Assembly (NCBI GenBank): GCA_964428105.1
Contig: CAYRWT010000001.1
Span: forward strand, 1-30,742
DNA: 30,742 nucleotides
Reading direction: 5' to 3'
DNA from: an uncultured Candidatus Peribacteria bacterium
GTDB lineage: Bacteria > Patescibacteriota > Gracilibacteria > Peribacterales > Peribacteraceae
Within the stretch, counting starts at the first letter, position 1. Each line of letters begins with the position of its first letter. The notes below the pieces were generated by a model, which was not told the DNA's origin, did not search any database, and saw only the letters and a list, made by a program, of their open reading frames with translations. Below, in pieces: positions 18,376 through 26,172 of the stretch. Made by a program: the position numbers and the translations under genes.

Positions 18376-19746
18376 CTATTCGTCGTCAAACTTTGCGCCA
18401 CTTCCTGAGGATGGCTTTTCCACGTCATAGAAGCGCATTTGCTCTCGCTTAAAGAGCAGCTCAACTCTTCCTGTTGGTCCATTGCGATGCTTGCGAACAT
18501 AGATATCGGTAATTCCTGGTCGATCAGAATCTTCTTCGTAATAATCTTCACGGTACATCATCAGCACAACGTCTGCATCTTGCTCAATTGAACCAGAATC
18601 ACGAAGATCAGAGAGCTGAGGGATATTTCCTGGGCGACTTTCTACCGCTCGCGAGAGCTGACTCAGGGCAACAATTGGGATTTTTAGTTCTCTTCCAAGC
18701 ATTTTTAGTGACCGGGAAATTTCGGATATTTCCTGTACACGATTCCCCATCATATTTGGTGCTCCTGTTGTCATGAGCTGCAAGAAGTCGATGATGATGA
18801 GGTCGAGACCATGCTCCATTTCAAGTCTCCTCGCTTTTGCGCGTAGTTCAGCGATAGAAGAGCCCATGGAATCATCGATGAAGATGTTTGCTTTATTGAG
18901 TTCATCCATAATCGGCCCCATGTTCTGGAAGTCTCGATCATCGAGTTTTCCCTTCTGTAGTTTCCATGAATCCACACCAAGCATCGAAGCGAAGAGACGA
19001 TCGACGAGCTGTTCTTTGCTCATTTCAAGAGAGAAAATACCAACGGTCTTATTGAACTTAATTGCTGCATTCTGTGCGATGTTCAGGGCAAGCGATGTTT
19101 TTCCCATACTTGGACGCGCAGCGATGATCACAAGGTCACTCGGCTGCAAACCGGAAAGTTTGAAATCCAGACTTGTAAATCCTGTTGGTACCCCCTTGAT
19201 GGGATTCGGATCTTTCGCTTCATGCATTTCAGCAAATCGCTCATACCTTGTGCTTAAAATATCTTTAATATGAACAAATTTTTCTTTGAGGAATGTTGTC
19301 GAAATAGTAAACACCGTTCGTTCCACTTCTTCTAAAAGTTCAGGAATGTCTTTATCTTCGTCATACCCTAATGCCTTAATTCTCTCTCCTGCGCCAATAA
19401 TACGTCGATGTACAGATTTTGCTTTCACAATTTGTGCGTATTTTGTGATGTGTGCTGATGTCGGAACGTGTGAAGCGAGTCCTGCAAGAAATGCACTTCC
19501 ACCAATGTCTTGGATCTTTCCGATATCTTGAAGTTTCGTTGCAACCGTAATGATGTCGATAGGCTGATGTGATTGATAGAGATCCATGACAGCCGCATAA
19601 ACGATGCGAAGTGTCGGATCATAAAAATCTTCAGGCTGCAAAAGATCAGAAACTTTTACAATCGCTTCAGGATCAATCAGGAGGGCTCCGAGCACTGTTC
19701 GCTCGGCTTCTATACTATTTGGCTGAACATCAAGTGTTGCTGACAT
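18376..19746 (-). CDS. dnaB: Replicative DNA helicase DnaB
   Basis: P.SIEAE..VLG, AARPSMGKT, FSLEMS, IIIDFLQLM, LSQLSR, LRDSGSIEQDAD, KHRNGPTG. No intein. Confidence 0.97.
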   Translation of the reverse strand: MSATLDVQPNSIEAERTVLGALLIDPEAIVKVSDLLQPEDFYDPTLRIVYAAVMDLYQSHQPIDIITVATKLQDIGKIQDIGGSAFLAGLASHVPTSAHITKYAQIVKAKSVHRRIIGAGERIKALGYDEDKDIPELLEEVERTVFTISTTFLKEKFVHIKDILSTRYERFAEMHEAKDPNPIKGVPTGFTSLDFKLSGLQPSDLVIIAARPSMGKTSLALNIAQNAAIKFNKTVGIFSLEMSKEQLVDRLFASMLGVDSWKLQKGKLDDRDFQNMGPIMDELNKANIFIDDSMGSSIAELRAKARRLEMEHGLDLIIIDFLQLMTTGAPNMMGNRVQEISEISRSLKMLGRELKIPIVALSQLSRAVESRPGNIPQLSDLRDSGSIEQDADVVLMMYREDYYEEDSDRPGITDIYVRKHRNGPTGRVELLFKREQMRFYDVEKPSSGSGAKFDDE

Positions 19747-19809
19747 GGAGAACGCGATTGTACCGAGACTTCTTCTTCGTTGCCACTGTCTTTCTGCGGC
19801 GATGATGTA

Positions 19810-20148
19810 TTAATTATTTTCTGGCTTACAGTCTCCCAGAAGAAGTTCAATAGCATCTTTGACAAGTGCACCAGCAACAACCACTCTCATTTCTTCATAT
19901 GATGGTCCTTTTCCTTTTACAAGACCCAGACGATCAAATCGATTTTCTTCTCTTGTTGTAAATGCAAGATTCCCACAATCATTGATTCTGCCTCTCATCT
20001 GGGAAATAAGTCCATCAATAGTTGTAATATGCGCTGTCTCCGTGAGAGCTATAAGTGCACCAGCTACGCCTTTCATTCCACTGCCTAACTTTTCATAGAC
20101 AATATTTTCTACACTCTTTCCAGCCTCATTTTTTGAAGAGGAAATCAT
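19810..20148 (-). CDS. Hypothetical 112-aa soluble protein
   Basis: ORF fills the recA-dnaB gap and has its own near-consensus promoter 8 nt upstream. No family recognised. Confidence 0.65.
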   Translation of the reverse strand: MISSSKNEAGKSVENIVYEKLGSGMKGVAGALIALTETAHITTIDGLISQMRGRINDCGNLAFTTREENRFDRLGLVKGKGPSYEEMRVVVAGALVKDAIELLLGDCKPENN

Positions 20149-20156
20149 GCAAAGTG

Positions 20157-20185
20157 ATAATAATCTAATTTTCTTAATTCGTCAA
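20157..20185 (-). promoter_or_regulatory. Promoter TTGACG-N17-TATTAT for the 112-aa gene
   Basis: Minus strand TTGACG (20185-20180), 17 nt, TATTAT (20162-20157), 8 nt, ATG. Confidence 0.7.
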
Positions 20186-20221
20186 TGCAGGAGAAGGTGT
20201 TGTGCGCATCCTCCCCCTGCA
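20186..20221 (-). terminator. GC-rich stem-loop downstream of recA
   Basis: Minus strand TGCAGGGGGAGG(A)TG-cgcacaa-CACCTTCTCCTGCA: 14 pairs including two G.U that form only on the recA strand. Only a short U tail. Confidence 0.6.
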
Positions 20222-20242
20222 GCGTGACTGTTTCTCGAAGGC

Positions 20243-21328
20243 TTATACTTGTGCCTCTTTGCGAATTTTCTCCTCGAGTTCTTTTGCAAGTTTTACATCT
20301 TTTCTTAGTGCCAGCCGTGCAGCTTCTCTCCCCTGTCCAAGAGTGAGCTCCCCCACCTTGAAGAATGCACCTGCTTTTTCGATAACACCGTATTTTACTC
20401 CGAGATCGAGAATATCGCCCTCTTTGGAAATTCCTTCTGCGTAGAGAATATCAAATTCTGCCTGGCGGAATGGTGGAGCAACTTTATTCTTTACTATTTT
20501 CACGCGTGTCCTGCTACCGACAATTTCCTGTTCGGATTCATTTTTCTCGGTAATTTTATCGATCCTGCGAACATCCATACGAATCGAAGCATAAAATTTT
20601 AAAGCGTTACCACCTGTTGTTGTTTCTGGATTTCCAAACATTACACCAATTTTCATACGCATTTGGTTGATGAAGATCACAGCGCAGTTCGTCTTACTAA
20701 CAATTGCTGTCAGTTTGCGTAACGCTTGGCTCATAAGACGTGCCTGAAGACCCATATGACTATCCCCCATCATTCCTTCAATTTCTGCCCTTGGCGTGAG
20801 TGCTGCGACAGAGTCGATCACAATGATGTCGATAGCGCCAGAACGTACGAGTTTCTCTGTGATTTCGAGTGCTTGCTCGCCATCATCTGGCTGTGAGACG
20901 AAGAGATGCTCTATATCTACGCCAATCTTCTTTGCATACTGAACATCGAGTGCGTGCTCTGCGTCGATGAACGCGGCTTTACCACCTTTTTTCTGCGCTT
21001 CTGCGATGGCATGAAGTGCAAGAGTTGTTTTACCAGAAGATTCTGGTCCAAAAATTTCGATAATTCTACTCTTTGGTATTCCTCCTCCAAGTGCGAGATC
21101 GAGGCTGAGTGATCCACTTGGGAACATTTCAATTTGAATGTGCTTTGAGTCCCCCATTTGCATGATGGCACCCGCACCAAACTGCTTCTCTATTTCAGAG
21201 AGTGCTGATGTAAGAGCTGCAGATTTTGCAGCATCCATCGCTTTTGTTGCATCGTCACGTACAGGATTATTTTGCTTCTGCGCACTTTGTGTCGCAGTTG
21301 TCGCCGTTGTTTGTTGAACCTTGGTCAT
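20243..21328 (-). CDS. recA: Recombinase RecA
   Basis: [87 protein letters not shown]. Confidence 0.98.
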
Positions 21329-21352
21329 AGGAGGATGTGGAAAGAAGTAAGG

Positions 21353-21370
21353 GTGTAAGAATGTACACCT
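21353..21370. promoter_or_regulatory. Palindromic operator copy 1, GTGTAA-GAAT-GTACAC-CT, just downstream of the recA -10 box
   Basis: Imperfect inverted repeat, 17/18 identical to the copy at 21431-21448; overlaps the expected transcription start. Confidence 0.7.
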
Positions 21371-21398
21371 ACTGTACCTTATGATGTTCGAGCGTCAA
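21371..21398 (-). promoter_or_regulatory. recA promoter TTGACG-N16-TACAGT
   Basis: Minus strand TTGACG (21398-21393), 16 nt, TACAGT (21376-21371). Confidence 0.6.
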
Positions 21399-21430
21399 CG
21401 AGTTTCACTTGCGGGTAAAGAAAAGTTATT

Positions 21431-21448
21431 GTGTACGAATGTACACCT
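21431..21448. promoter_or_regulatory. Palindromic operator copy 2, GTGTAC-GAAT-GTACAC-CT, upstream of the recA -35 box
   Basis: Perfect 6-4-6 inverted repeat; direct repeat of 21353-21370. Confidence 0.7.
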
Positions 21449-22266
21449 TACCTCGATCTACATCTCCCAATACGATTAGAAATGTCTTGTACTTCACAAA
21501 ATTCACCCTTCGGACAGAGAAGGCCAGCAGTACCTCCACACGGAGTATTGCTACCAGAAATCACGCCACTACCTGATGAAAACTTCGAAGAAAACATTGC
21601 AGAACTCGTACTATTACTTTTAGGAATTTCTCGAAATGTTGCAAGAATATTTTCCACTTCTTTTCGACGTTCTGCTCCCATTTTAATCTTTACTAAGCTT
21701 ATTGGTTGATCAGAATGTAGAAGAAGATATGTGCGAGGTGTTGTTGAAATTTCATAAGCAAGCAATGATCCAATATTCATTTTTTTTGCAGTAGGTAAAG
21801 GTTTCACTGTTGGCGATTCTAATGTTAGAAGATTCGAGCCACTGAACGCGAGTGAAATACTTCCATCTTTTTTTATGAGAGACCATTTTGGAGGTAGTGT
21901 TAGTGCAAGGCCGAACTCAGGAATAAGCGTTTCTTTTGTTTTGCTAAGTTCCTCGAGAGTTTCGACTACAAGAACCGGCAGCTCATTTGGCACAGAATTT
22001 TTTAGAAGAGTCCCATGCACCTTCACGGTGGTTCCGCTATACGCACTCAACGAAAATGTCGTGCTTTCGATGTAAAATACTACAGCATTTGTTGAGCGAA
22101 AGAGATGTGTTCCACGGCGAACGAGGGAAATAGGCGCAGAAGAAATCGTTCCTGTTGCTGTAAAAGGACCAAGTGGCAACGAAGTATTTTCCTCTATGGA
22201 AGTCCCACAACTCGCAAGGAAGAAAGCGAAAAAAATGATTGATGATCGAGTGAAAGAATAACGCAT
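21448..22266 (-). CDS. Putative lipoprotein with C-terminal four-Cys motif
   Basis: Signal peptide MRYSFTRSSIIFFAFFLAS-C (lipobox LASC); C-terminus CGGTAGLLCPKGEFC...GRC after a Ser/Gly linker. Confidence 0.75.
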   Translation of the reverse strand: MRYSFTRSSIIFFAFFLASCGTSIEENTSLPLGPFTATGTISSAPISLVRRGTHLFRSTNAVVFYIESTTFSLSAYSGTTVKVHGTLLKNSVPNELPVLVVETLEELSKTKETLIPEFGLALTLPPKWSLIKKDGSISLAFSGSNLLTLESPTVKPLPTAKKMNIGSLLAYEISTTPRTYLLLHSDQPISLVKIKMGAERRKEVENILATFREIPKSNSTSSAMFSSKFSSGSGVISGSNTPCGGTAGLLCPKGEFCEVQDISNRIGRCRSR

Positions 22267-22309
22267 AAAGAGAGACGGAGTAGAACACTGTCTATCTTAC
22301 ACGAAAAAT

Positions 22310-23419
22310 TTAAGCAGAAGCGCTATTCTTTAGGCTAGCGTCAAATGCATATACTGCGCGACCAACACGGACGAAGTACGGCATTTTCTGAAGGTTCAAA
22401 GAAATGGTTCCTATCTTTACTGTGCGCTGCTTATTGACTTCAGCGATGATCTCTTTTTTGCTGAGTGGTCCTTTCTTTATCAAAATATTTTCGATGACAT
22501 CAGCAACTGTTCCTGGTTCATACCCCCAATCTCGTAGAGCATAGAGACCACGGCCAACAAGGACGAATTGAGGATAGCGAATCAGTTCATTGTGCACAGC
22601 TTGTACAGTAACGTTTTTGTGATCGAAGGATGCTTCTTTGATACGGTTTGCAATTTCGAGGAAGTGGAGTGGTTTTCCTGTCTTTTTGAGGATGATCTCG
22701 ACCTTATCGCGGATAGAGCGTGGACGAACGAATCTCCATTCAGTAAGTCCCCAACCATCAGCAATTTCCTTTAAACGCTCATCGACGGAAAGACAGCTTA
22801 AGACTAGCTCTGTCGTTGGTGTCTTTGCTTCGAAGTTTGGCATTGCTTGTATCGAAGAGACGAGTTCCTGTGCCTTCATACAAGAGTGACGCTTGGAAAG
22901 AAATTTTACTGCGTGATCCACGATGACATTTACCTCTTCTGCTGCAACAGCGGAGAGGCGCCAGAATGACTTATAGCTAGGACGACCGCCTTCTGCAGTC
23001 ATCTCGTTATCAATACTGAAGGAGAGACGAAGGATCGAACCGTCGATGACATCGGTACCTGTTGGAAGACGTTTTAAGACTGCAGAGATAAGATCGCTTG
23101 CAAGCATGAGTCCACCGTGTGCACGAAGAATAGCTTTTCCTATTTCATTCACCTCATTCAAGCGTGTTGTGCGAACAGTGCGACGAAGCTTCGCGATAGC
23201 GATGTTCTCGATCTGACGGATGCGTTCGCGTGTGACATTGAAATGCTTGCCAATCTTCTCGAGTGTCTGCTTATTTCCATCGAGCAGAGCGAAACGTCGC
23301 TTCACTACCTCTACTTCCTTTGGTGTAAGTACAAGGAAAAGGTCTCCGAGAAGATCCTTGAGGTTAATTGCAAGTGGCTTCGTCTGTGTACCAGAGGTTT
23401 GAGCGGAAGCAGGGATCAT
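22310..23419 (-). CDS. Sigma70 region-4 HTH fused to tandem HARE-HTH/RNAP-delta-like winged helices
   Basis: LTPKEVEVVKRRFAL...TLEKIGKHFNVTRERIRQIENIAIAKLR (sigma r4). C-terminal repeats IL..TGKPLHF.EI...F.LVGRGLYAL..W and IL..KGPL...EII...F.RVGRAVY. No sigma region 2. Confidence 0.8.
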   Translation of the reverse strand: MIPASAQTSGTQTKPLAINLKDLLGDLFLVLTPKEVEVVKRRFALLDGNKQTLEKIGKHFNVTRERIRQIENIAIAKLRRTVRTTRLNEVNEIGKAILRAHGGLMLASDLISAVLKRLPTGTDVIDGSILRLSFSIDNEMTAEGGRPSYKSFWRLSAVAAEEVNVIVDHAVKFLSKRHSCMKAQELVSSIQAMPNFEAKTPTTELVLSCLSVDERLKEIADGWGLTEWRFVRPRSIRDKVEIILKKTGKPLHFLEIANRIKEASFDHKNVTVQAVHNELIRYPQFVLVGRGLYALRDWGYEPGTVADVIENILIKKGPLSKKEIIAEVNKQRTVKIGTISLNLQKMPYFVRVGRAVYAFDASLKNSASA

Positions 23420-23468
23420 AGAGATGGGCGGAGGAAGGGAACCACACCGTTATACAAGAATTTTGACA

Positions 23469-23499
23469 GAAAAGAAAGGTCTAGTTTTGAGAACCTTTC
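23469..23499 (-). terminator. Candidate intrinsic terminator after ruvX
   Basis: Minus strand GAAAGGT-tctcaaaactag-ACCTTTC followed by TTTTCT. Confidence 0.45.
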
Positions 23500-23587
23500 A
23501 CTCTGAGGGTGTGCCGATTTTTTTGCGAAGTGAAGCATAAGACTGAGATTCAGTGAATTGTCAAAATGGTGTATATCATATAATTTT

Positions 23588-23989
23588 TTATAAAGATGTC
23601 AATAGTTTCTTTCTTCGTGACATTTCAATCTCAAGAATTGTGCAAGCTGCACGCGCATCATCATCCGCTCCGGAGAAGCCCTCTTTTGAGGAAGTAAAGC
23701 GTTCATCGATGTATATGATCTCTATTGTTGGCACTTTCTTCTGTAATGCTTTGCCAACCTCACGCACGTATTCTGCCTGGCTTCCTTCCTCTCCTTGTGG
23801 AAGGCGTGGGAGGCCAAGGATCACTATGTTGCACTGATGTTTTTGGAGCATTGCAAGAATACCATCAACACACTCCCATATCGTACTATGACGCAGTGAG
23901 GATAAGGCGATAATGCAATCTGATGAAATATACCCAAGAGCACAACCCGTCTTGCGTTTCCCGATATCGAGGCTAAGGATGGTGTTCAC
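23588..23989 (-). CDS. ruvX: YqgF/RuvX-family nuclease (GTG start)
   Basis: LSLDIGKRKTGCA, VILGLP, IDERFTS, DDARAACTILE. Confidence 0.92.
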   Translation of the reverse strand: MNTILSLDIGKRKTGCALGYISSDCIIALSSLRHSTIWECVDGILAMLQKHQCNIVILGLPRLPQGEEGSQAEYVREVGKALQKKVPTIEIIYIDERFTSSKEGFSGADDDARAACTILEIEMSRRKKLLTSL

Positions 23990-23998
23990 AGGATCATC

Positions 23999-24262
23999 TT
24001 ACGCCTTTTTAGCTACAAGCTTTGAAAGGGCAGATTTTTTATGAGCAGCGTTCTTCCAGTGAATGAGATTCTTCTTTGCAGCAAGGTCAATCTTTTTGAA
24101 TGCATTGCTTAGAGCTTTTTGTGCTTCAGGAAGCTTCCCTTCCTTTGCAAGGTCTTGGATAGAACGAATCGCTGTCTTCATCGCAGTATTCATTGGGCGA
24201 CGACGCTCACGTCGAACTTCTGACTGACGTGCGTGCTTTACGGAGGCTTGTAGGACTGGCAT
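23999..24262 (-). CDS. rpsT: 30S ribosomal protein S20 (87 aa; likely start MPVLQAS at 24262)
   Basis: ASVKHARQSEVRRERRR...MKTAIR...IDLAAKKNLIHWKNAAHKKSAL. The ORF-track extension to 24388 is not supported. Confidence 0.93.
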   Translation of the reverse strand: MPVLQASVKHARQSEVRRERRRPMNTAMKTAIRSIQDLAKEGKLPEAQKALSNAFKKIDLAAKKNLIHWKNAAHKKSALSKLVAKKA

Positions 24263-24271
24263 AGCGGACGC

Positions 24272-24300
24272 AGGGTACGGGAGTAGAAAGCTGAAGTCAA
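24272..24300 (-). promoter_or_regulatory. rpsT promoter TTGACT-N17-TACCCT
   Basis: Minus strand TTGACT (24300-24295), 17 nt, TACCCT (24277-24272), 9 nt, ATG. Confidence 0.65.
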
Positions 24301-24387
24301 ATTCTCTGAAAAGAAAAATGAATGAGGTGTCTCGATTATCTATGCTACTATTTAGAGCGTACTTCTTTCGTTTTGATTTTCTCGTCA

Positions 24388-24393
24388 TAAAAT
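24388..24393 (+). promoter_or_regulatory. -10 box TAAAAT 6 nt before the glmS ATG
   Basis: TAAAAT-ctccct-ATG. Confidence 0.6.
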
Positions 24394-24399
24394 CTCCCT

Positions 24400-26172
24400 A
24401 TGTGTGGAATCTTCGGATACATCGGTACGCGAATTGATGCCGGCAAGATCGTATTGAATGGACTGAAAAATCTCGAGTATCGTGGCTATGATTCTTGGGG
24501 GGTAGCTATGCAAACAGAGAATAAACTTCGCATCACAAAAGATATTGGAAAGATTAGTGGTGTTGATGCGCAGCAATTCGAAGCTTCATCGAGCCTTGCG
24601 ATTGCACATTCCAGATGGGCAACCCATGGTGGAGTCACATCCCTCAATGCCCACCCTCACATAGATAGTTCTGGAGAGATTGCTGTTGTTCATAATGGGA
24701 TCATCGAAAATTATGAGGAATTGAAGCATGAATTAGAGTCACAAGGAGTGGCATTTGTTTCCCAGACAGATTCAGAAGTCATTCCCCATCTTCTCGCATC
24801 GTTTTTGCATCAGGGACTTTCCTTTGTCGATGCATTTCGCAAGACGTGTTTACGTTTACATGGCCGCTTTGCAATTTTGGCACTCCATCAAACAGAACAT
24901 TGTCTGATAGCAGCGCGTATCGGCTCCCCTCTCATCGTTGGTGTTGGAAAGAAGGAAATTTTTATCGCATCTGATATCCCAGCATTCCTCGAACACACAC
25001 GTACCGTGCAATATCTCGATGATGGCGAAATGGTCGTTGCTTCAATGGATGGCGTGACGTTTAGTGATATAGCGAGTGGTACAGAGCGTACAAAACGCAG
25101 TATCGAGATTGCATGGAAATCTGGAGACGCAACAAAAGGAGAATACCAACATTACATGCTCAAAGAGATCATGGAGCAAAAAGAAAGCATTATTCGTGCC
25201 GTGCACCAAGATGATGAGGAAATCGAAACGATTGCACACGCTATCGAACATTGTATGGGGTGCTTTCTCTCTGGTTGTGGAACCGCTGCAAAAGTCTGTA
25301 TGGCTGCTGAGTACTTTTTCTCGGTCGTCGCTCATCGCCATGTGAATGTCGTTGCTTCAAGTGAATTTAAGCTCTATCACCACTTTCTTCGCCCAGAGAG
25401 CTTACTCATCGTCGTAAGCCAAAGTGGAGAGACAGCAGATGTTCTCGAAGCAATGAGTGTTGCGAAGGCTGCGAAGTCCAAGGTTCTTGCAATTGTGAAT
25501 GCAGAAGGATCTTCTATCTATCGTGCTGCGAATTCTGCTCTTTTGATCAATGCAGGGCCTGAGCGCGCTGTTGCATCCACAAAAGCAGCAACAGGACAGA
25601 TGGCTGTACTTCTCCTTATCGCTCACGCTGTTGCAGGGAAATTGAAAGAAGGAAGGACTTTACTCTTAGAAACTGGCGGAAAAATCAATGATATGTTGAA
25701 TCCACGCTATATCGAGCACATCCGCTCGATCGCTGAGACCATCAAAGGACACGAGAACCTCTATATCATCGGAAAAGGTTGGAATTACCCTATGGCGCTC
25801 GAGAGTGCGATAAAGATCCAGGAAGTGAGCTATGTGCACGCGGAAGGTTTCGCTGCTGGTGAACTCAAGCACGGTCCTATTGCTTTGATAGAAAAAGGCA
25901 CACCGTGCCTTGCTCTCCTCGGTGAAGATGAAGTGAAGACAGATGTCCTCAGTAATATCCAGGAACTGAAAGCTCGTGGAGCAAATATCATCGCTATCGC
26001 ACCAGAGAAACATCCTTCGTTCGATCACTGGATAAAAGTGCCAGACAGCGGACCTGCTCAGCCAATCGTGAATGTTATCCCAGTGCAGATCCTCGCGTAC
26101 CTCCTCGCAGTGCTTCGAGGGAAAGATCCGGATATGCCAAGAAACTTAGCGAAGAGCGTGACGGTGAAGTGA
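24400..26172 (+). CDS. glmS: Glutamine--fructose-6-phosphate transaminase (isomerizing)
   Basis: MCGIFG, LEYRGYDSWG, HSRWATHG, NAHPH, VHNGIIEN, SQTDSEV, SQSGETAD, ELKHGP, PRNLAKSVTV. Confidence 0.98.
   Translation: MCGIFGYIGTRIDAGKIVLNGLKNLEYRGYDSWGVAMQTENKLRITKDIGKISGVDAQQFEASSSLAIAHSRWATHGGVTSLNAHPHIDSSGEIAVVHNGIIENYEELKHELESQGVAFVSQTDSEVIPHLLASFLHQGLSFVDAFRKTCLRLHGRFAILALHQTEHCLIAARIGSPLIVGVGKKEIFIASDIPAFLEHTRTVQYLDDGEMVVASMDGVTFSDIASGTERTKRSIEIAWKSGDATKGEYQHYMLKEIMEQKESIIRAVHQDDEEIETIAHAIEHCMGCFLSGCGTAAKVCMAAEYFFSVVAHRHVNVVASSEFKLYHHFLRPESLLIVVSQSGETADVLEAMSVAKAAKSKVLAIVNAEGSSIYRAANSALLINAGPERAVASTKAATGQMAVLLLIAHAVAGKLKEGRTLLLETGGKINDMLNPRYIEHIRSIAETIKGHENLYIIGKGWNYPMALESAIKIQEVSYVHAEGFAAGELKHGPIALIEKGTPCLALLGEDEVKTDVLSNIQELKARGANIIAIAPEKHPSFDHWIKVPDSGPAQPIVNVIPVQILAYLLAVLRGKDPDMPRNLAKSVTVK

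Follow-up and report, generated by a model that had tools for sequence, protein, structure and literature searches.

LexA boxes with a 4-nt spacer are known from cyanobacteria and from Bacillus. The cyanobacterial box has been given as RGTACNNNDGTWCB, or AGTACWNWTGTACT (Mazon et al. and Li et al., as quoted in a passage of PMC3091678). Boxes of this type precede recA, lexA, and ssb and are bound by a canonical two-domain LexA. The DinR/LexA Cheo box of the Gram-positive Bacillus reads CGAAC-N4-GTTCG (PMC3091678). According to a passage in PMC9210283, the lexA promoter of E. coli holds two LexA operators. These boxes are adjacent and serve autoregulation, and other promoters with two SOS boxes are known. 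LexA binding motifs are known to be labile between lineages (PMC8565304).

The window analyzed here is a stretch of 30,742 nucleotides (contig C1) from an uncultured Candidatus Peribacteria bacterium of the family Peribacteraceae. The source genome has a size of 0.95 Mb (951 kb) in 131 contigs, with 44.8% GC and an estimated completeness of 90%. Its closest recA loci among public genomes all carry the labels Candidatus Peribacteria, Peribacteraceae, or Peregrinibacteria, which places it within the CPR (Patescibacteria). Sequencing runs that contain DNA of the source organism come from freshwater, groundwater, and drinking-water metagenomes, and no RNA run was seen among them. Two palindromes at the recA promoter in this window are, judging from sequence comparison, very probably LexA binding sites, which makes them a lineage-specific version of a known switch and not a new kind of regulator.

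recA is encoded on the minus strand at 20243..21328 as a 361-aa open reading frame (ORF) (PF00154, E 5e-136, and PF21096). Its control region contains two 18-nt palindrome copies, GTGTAAGAATGTACACCT at 21353-21370 and GTGTACGAATGTACACCT at 21431-21448, which start 78 nt apart and are identical at 17/18 positions, including the 4-nt spacer. A promoter scan found a promoter-like element, TTGACG-16 nt-TACAGT, with 9/12 matches at 21371..21398 on the minus strand, and the TTGAC and the TAnnnT hexamer are kept at the equivalent place in the anchored recA promoter alignment of relatives. The proximal putative operator (21353..21370, GGTGTAC-ATTC-TTACACC on the recA strand) starts 1 nt after the -10 hexamer and lies over the expected recA transcription start. 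The distal putative operator (21431..21448, GGTGTAC-ATTC-GTACACA on the recA strand) is centered about 50 bp upstream of the recA -35 and overlaps the TAA stop codon (21448-21450) of an upstream co-directional ORF. With a matrix built from sites of other genomes, the two score 25.2 and 23.4 bits, respectively. Read along the recA strand, the elements are the upstream stop codon, the distal palindrome, about 30 nt, CAAG, TTGACG-16-TACAGT, the proximal palindrome, a 24-nt leader, and ATG. These positions confirm the initial annotation, which had reported two 18-nt copies flanking the recA promoter, one of them over the expected start site directly after the -10 box, here TACAGT. It had also noted no other full copy in the window, and TGTAC-N4-GTACA with at most one mismatch indeed gave just these 2 matches there, against 0.37 expected.

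The recA leader (24 nt, 21329-21352) is C/U-rich and has no Shine-Dalgarno sequence. The recA leaders of relatives are likewise C/U-rich, with CCTCC-like runs and without a Shine-Dalgarno sequence. The CAAG element (21408..21411, minus strand) lies about 10 nt upstream of the recA -35 and is conserved across the family in anchored alignments. Some relatives (L081, L083, L116, L118, L119, L123, L124, L131, and L132) have a third site, GTGTAC-N4-GACAAG, which lies about 26 nt downstream from the distal operator; it is half-degenerate, and CAAG makes up its right half. The element may be the remnant of an operator, or it may be bound by another factor.

The gene upstream of recA (21448..22266, minus strand) encodes a predicted lipoprotein of 272 aa with a LASC lipobox and a Cys-rich C-terminus, and it belongs to no Pfam family. 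Its C-terminus contains a conserved Cys-rich motif, G.FC...D...N.IG.C. The gene is syntenic and co-directional upstream of recA in 56/76 Peribacteria loci, and in many of these recA loci its stop codon adjoins the distal site. Further upstream, a 369-aa protein (22310-23419, minus strand) has an unusual architecture, in which an N-terminal Sigma70 region 4 is combined with a HARE-HTH domain without sigma region 2.

The pattern GTGTAC-N4-GTACAC occurs genome-wide with 2 exact and 6 one-mismatch matches, compared with 0 and about 2 in shuffled sequences. A symmetrised matrix was built from 112 distinct sites upstream of recA in 76 other Peribacteria genomes, with the source genome excluded. The matrix was seeded with the pattern of the initial annotation, so the conservation at the seeded positions is inflated. 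Its consensus is GGTGTAC-N4-GTACACC, in which a G outside the seeding pattern is present in 85% of the sites. The frequencies in the outer arm are G 0.85, G 0.98, T 1.00, and G 0.96, and those of the inner positions are A 0.96 and C 0.70, followed by four variable bases, G 0.70 and T 0.96. The GGTG/CACC outer arms are the most conserved portion of the motif.

Scanning of the 951-kb source genome with this matrix gave 7 matches of at least 15.7 bits, all outside long ORFs, while the next best match (11.2 bits) lies inside an ORF and the weaker matches mostly fall within ORFs. Shuffled genomes gave 0-1 matches of at least 16 bits, and the reversed matrix gave 2, both within coding sequence. Two of the strong sites are the copies in the recA control region (21353..21370 and 21431..21448). 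The third (19.4 bits) is in the lexA promoter at the end of contig C35. The fourth (C30:6429) lies between the UPF0102/YraN gene and comM, 28 nt ahead of the comM ATG, and the fifth (C3:12828) lies 38 nt ahead of ssb, which encodes a protein with two OB folds. The sixth (C58:5319) adjoins the ATG of a GIY-YIG gene, and the seventh (C16:9465) lies between argS and a lipoprotein gene. The strong sites are therefore concentrated in promoters of DNA repair and recombination genes, with 6/7 at recA, lexA, ssb, comM/yraN, and GIY-YIG. No additional site of at least 12 bits was found in the assembly, and uvrA/B, ruvAB, recN, dinB, and rarA are not targets. A Y-family polymerase gene was not found in the source genome. 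A GIY-YIG homologue with a site directly upstream was found in just one relative (G008), and the gene is thus a variable member of the regulon.

The motif belongs to the class of palindromes with a 4-nt spacer and an AC-N4-GT center, although its flanks are not the published AGTAC...GTACT or CGAAC...GTTCG. It is like the cyanobacterial box in its GTAC-N4-GTAC core, in its 4-nt spacer, and in its placement upstream of recA, lexA, and ssb. In contrast, the cyanobacterial box has A/T outside GTAC, whereas the Peribacteraceae motif has GGTG...CACC, forms an 18-bp unit, and occurs in an unrelated CPR host. At the lexA sites of Peribacteraceae, unlike in the cyanobacterial box, the inner T/A of GTAC is under the weakest constraint of all arm positions (GTGNAC). 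With the Bacillus box, the motif shares the 4-nt-spacer palindrome and the AC-N4-GT center, and its core is one base per half-site away from it. Many proximal recA sites and lexA sites of Peribacteraceae still read GTGAAC in one half. The motif differs from the Bacillus box in having GTG/CAC at the outer bases, where Bacillus has CG/CG, and in preferring T over A as the inner base. The distinctive features here are the GGTG/CACC outer arms and the 18-bp length. The GTAC-N4-GTAC core is already known from cyanobacteria. A LexA motif and regulon of Patescibacteria were reportedly described by Sanchez-Osuna, Barbe, and Erill in 2017 (Environ Microbiol). That Patescibacteria SOS study is listed, in a passage of PMC7739468, among the cases of LexA direct-repeat motifs, whereas the Peribacteraceae motif is an inverted repeat. 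A search of the available literature for LexA in Peregrinibacteria or under other CPR names found nothing relevant, and the motif may already have been described in the 2017 study.

Conservation was examined in 30 relatives, of which 18 represent genera of the same family and 12 represent further families of the class. A gene was counted when a site of at least 12 bits was present within 300 nt upstream, and the reversed matrix served as the control. Within the family, sites were found at recA in 17/18 genomes, at lexA in 17/17, at comM in 16/17, and at ssb in 12/18, with a count of 0 in the reversed control for each gene. The other 12 families had a single site at lexA and none at recA, comM, or ssb. 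At least one site was present in 76/76 recA loci of Peribacteria and in 0/4 of Saccharibacteria. An unbiased pattern scan of five relatives gave 5-11 sites per genome versus 0-4 for the backwards control. The sister families have candidate boxes of their own at lexA or recA, which read GAAC-N4-GTTC in two families and GGTGAG-N6-CTCACC in one, and these differences fit the known lability of LexA motifs (PMC8565304).

The proposal of the initial annotation, a lineage-specific LexA-type operator of the 4-nt-spacer class, is borne out by the recurrence of the motif at lexA and ssb here and at recA, lexA, comM, and ssb family-wide; its suggested check on the promoters of relatives likewise recovered the motif ahead of the recA, lexA, comM, and ssb orthologues. 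The TGTAC-N4-GTACA unit that it had proposed recurs as a core, but the conserved unit is longer (GGTGTAC-N4-GTACACC). The genome scan that it had suggested yielded lexA, ssb, and other DNA-metabolism genes but failed to yield uvrA/B, ruvAB, recN, dinB, or rarA.

Several other genes in relatives carry the motif. In three genera, a strong site (L238, L251, and L252, in G011, G001, and G010) is directly followed by a conserved small ORF of roughly 80 aa, which carries the motif QSLGC.VT at the C-terminus and belongs to no Pfam family. In G001, two sites with a spacing of 95 bp accompany this ORF. In these three relatives the site is like that on C16, and the 80-aa ORF was not found in the source genome. 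Strong sites are also found at genes for a Rad52/Rad22-family protein, an IrrE-like M78 peptidase, and a cytosine-5 DNA methyltransferase (L243 and L254 in G011 and L255 in G010). Judging from these sites, the genes seem to belong to the regulon in a lineage-variable manner. lexA stands directly beside recA in members of other families of the class, in tandem in G025 and G029 and divergently in G028. G028 also reads TGA inside recA and comM, which is consistent with a recoded genetic code of the Gracilibacteria type.

The LexA of the family is canonical in sequence, with a winged-helix N-domain, an S24 domain, the cleavage site, and the Ser/Lys dyad. A 200-aa protein with PF01726 and PF00717 is encoded in 17/18 same-family genomes. 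The LexA of relatives aligns over its full length to the solved LexA structures 8s7g, 3k2z, and 1jhh, with the Ala-Gly of the cleavage site (IAAGFA), the dyad serine (GDSM), and the dyad lysine (TLKRL) all retained. In the lexA promoters of 17/17 family genomes, TTGACA is followed by an operator that fills the spacer, by the -10, and by a second operator directly after it. Two operators are thus present at lexA as in the E. coli lexA promoter described in PMC9210283.

In the source genome, a profile search gave no match to the LexA DNA-binding domain PF01726. A Peptidase_S24 match was found on contig C56, in the final 67 codons of an ORF cut off by the contig end, and this fragment was the only match in a tblastn search of the source genome with the LexA of a relative. 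It is 77% identical to the LexA of relatives and keeps TLKRL, the catalytic Lys motif. The final 40 nt of contig C35 read TTGACA-GTGTACAAACGTGCACC-TATTAT-GGTGAACGA and are followed by the contig break, and up to this break they match the lexA promoter design of relatives. Because the C35 end carries this promoter design and C56 carries the LexA C-terminus, the source genome very probably encodes a lexA that is split by an assembly gap between C35 and C56, with about 420 nt missing, including the N-terminal DNA-binding domain. Metagenome contigs from 3/4 runs (X2, X4, and X6) extend 0.1-6.4 kb beyond the C35 end, by 0.6 kb in X4 and by 6.4 kb in X6. The initial annotation had kept a fallback for a genome without lexA, namely another DNA-damage regulator such as the sigma-r4/winged-helix protein. 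This fallback is unneeded, since LexA is encoded in 17/18 family genomes and the source genome has both the lexA promoter and the C-terminal 67 residues.

lexA is located at or near contig ends in the family assemblies G000 (the source genome), G005, G009, and G016. The region around lexA seems liable to assembly breaks, and strain variation or variable DNA alongside may be the cause. Within C35:9200-9425 (L144:200-425), which lies between valS and the lexA promoter, two short stretches rich in GC have a contig depth 10-50x that of their flanks in four water metagenomes, which suggests that they are a repeated or widely shared element. No tRNA or Rfam family matched these stretches.

Two sites of at least 8 bits are present in 72/81 recA loci, and their spacing is 77-86 bp in 70 of them. 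The most frequent spacings are 83 bp (26 loci), 82 bp (14), 80 bp (11), and 81 bp (9), compared with 78 bp in the source genome. The distance between the operators varies by at most 6 bp in most loci, whereas the distance from the proximal site to the coding sequence varies by more than 150 bp. Therefore, the operator spacing is constrained. In each of the 70 recA promoters of Peribacteria that were aligned, the -10 hexamer is followed by the proximal site, and the anchored alignment of recA loci shows no conservation beyond the distal site on its upstream side. Of the two sites, the distal one fits better on average (24.8 versus 22.4 bits) and is the stronger in 48/69 loci. This layout resembles the main-plus-auxiliary operator pair O1/O3 of lac. 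To our knowledge, no LexA promoter with an operator pair about 80 bp apart has been described, and we know of no case in which LexA forms loops. The two boxes of the E. coli lexA promoter are adjacent, unlike the recA boxes of Peribacteraceae, which are about 80 bp apart. On these patterns, the distal site may be an auxiliary operator that aids LexA occupancy of the weaker proximal site through cooperativity or a short loop. Alternatively, it may be a roadblock to transcription that enters from the lipoprotein gene, which runs in the same direction. The cooperative binding or looping suggested in the initial annotation would fit the conserved spacing. At 83 bp, the modal spacing corresponds to about 8 helical turns, whereas 78 bp here corresponds to about 7.4 turns and is out of phase. 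The out-of-phase variants of 78-80 bp argue against a strict looping geometry.

A binder other than LexA would be a regulator of damage or recombination that also controls lexA, such as the Sigma70_r4/HARE-HTH protein (22310-23419) or another helix-turn-helix protein. The link between LexA and the motif is drawn from comparison of sequences, and the N-terminal domain of the LexA of the source genome falls in the assembly gap. In addition, lexA was not found in the family genome G003 (97% complete, 90 contigs), although sites at recA, ssb, and comM are present there. The G003 case is readily explained by assembly, and a gap is the simpler reading because lexA is at contig ends in several family assemblies. 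Against another binder, the two operators over the lexA promoter core in 17/17 genomes form the classical pattern of LexA autoregulation, the AC-N4-GT core matches the LexA boxes of Gram-positive bacteria and cyanobacteria (PMC3091678), and sister lineages carry GAAC-N4-GTTC at lexA and recA. A regulator of this kind is therefore improbable.

As another alternative, the palindromes could function as hairpins in RNA, in which case the distal copy would serve as an intrinsic terminator for the upstream gene and the proximal copy would form a stem-loop in the 5' leader. A terminator scan flags both sites, with 6-bp stems followed by T-rich tails, and the 142-nt region is more stably folded than shuffled versions of it (z -3.4). 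However, among 118 distinct sites, which were chosen by the matrix, 158 departures of the arms from the consensus were counted, of which 141 break a pair and only 2 are compensatory. The sequence is thus conserved and not the pairing. The same sequence is found at unrelated promoters, and at lexA it is inside the untranscribed spacer between -35 and -10. The tail after the distal site contains no conserved T-run (consensus CCAc.A.a.ttt), and Rfam gave no family match in 19500-24500. An RNA hairpin function is very unlikely on this evidence. An RNA element was rejected for the lack of an Rfam match and of covariation in the arms, and a terminator was rejected as the main function of the distal site, which the scan flags but whose tail is not conserved.

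Chance or a recent local duplication without function, for which the likeness of the copies even in the 4-nt spacer (17/18 identity) and the 3/100 shuffles of the window that reach two matches might speak, is scarcely credible because the pair is kept across about 70 genomes of many genera despite diverged intervening sequence.

The analysis shows the sites themselves, where they sit in the promoters, how they are conserved, the pattern of the regulon, and the occurrence of a canonical LexA in the family. From this we infer binding by LexA, repression from these sites, and a supporting role of the distal site. With considerable confidence, both palindromes can be regarded as LexA operators that repress recA, with the distal one as an auxiliary operator and with damage-induced derepression of recA together with lexA, ssb, comM/yraN, and the GIY-YIG gene. 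As long as the DNA is undamaged, a LexA dimer bound at the proximal site would block RNA polymerase at the recA promoter. Upon DNA damage, RecA filaments would trigger the self-cleavage of LexA at its Ala-Gly site through the Ser/Lys dyad. Cleavage of LexA would then derepress recA along with lexA, ssb, comM/yraN, and the GIY-YIG nuclease gene. The distal site, as an auxiliary operator, would either raise the LexA occupancy of the promoter or stop read-through transcription from the lipoprotein gene.

A broader reading of the regulon is more tentative and rather doubtful. It holds that the set is a minimal regulon for recombination and incoming DNA (recA, ssb, ComM, YraN, GIY-YIG, and Rad52 in a relative) and not for mutagenic repair, combined with an operator pair about 83 bp apart. 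If this is true, LexA would control recA by looping or cooperativity over about 83 bp or as a roadblock to read-through.

For Peribacteria, a widespread uncultured CPR lineage on whose regulation the literature search found no published data, the analysis provides a testable LexA-binding motif together with a small, well-supported SOS regulon. It also adds a further data point for the rapid divergence of LexA motifs, in which sister families of one class have different boxes. Two features are less ordinary. The first is the conserved operator pair about 80 bp apart at recA, and the second is that comM is under predicted LexA control in organisms that are thought to rely on DNA uptake.
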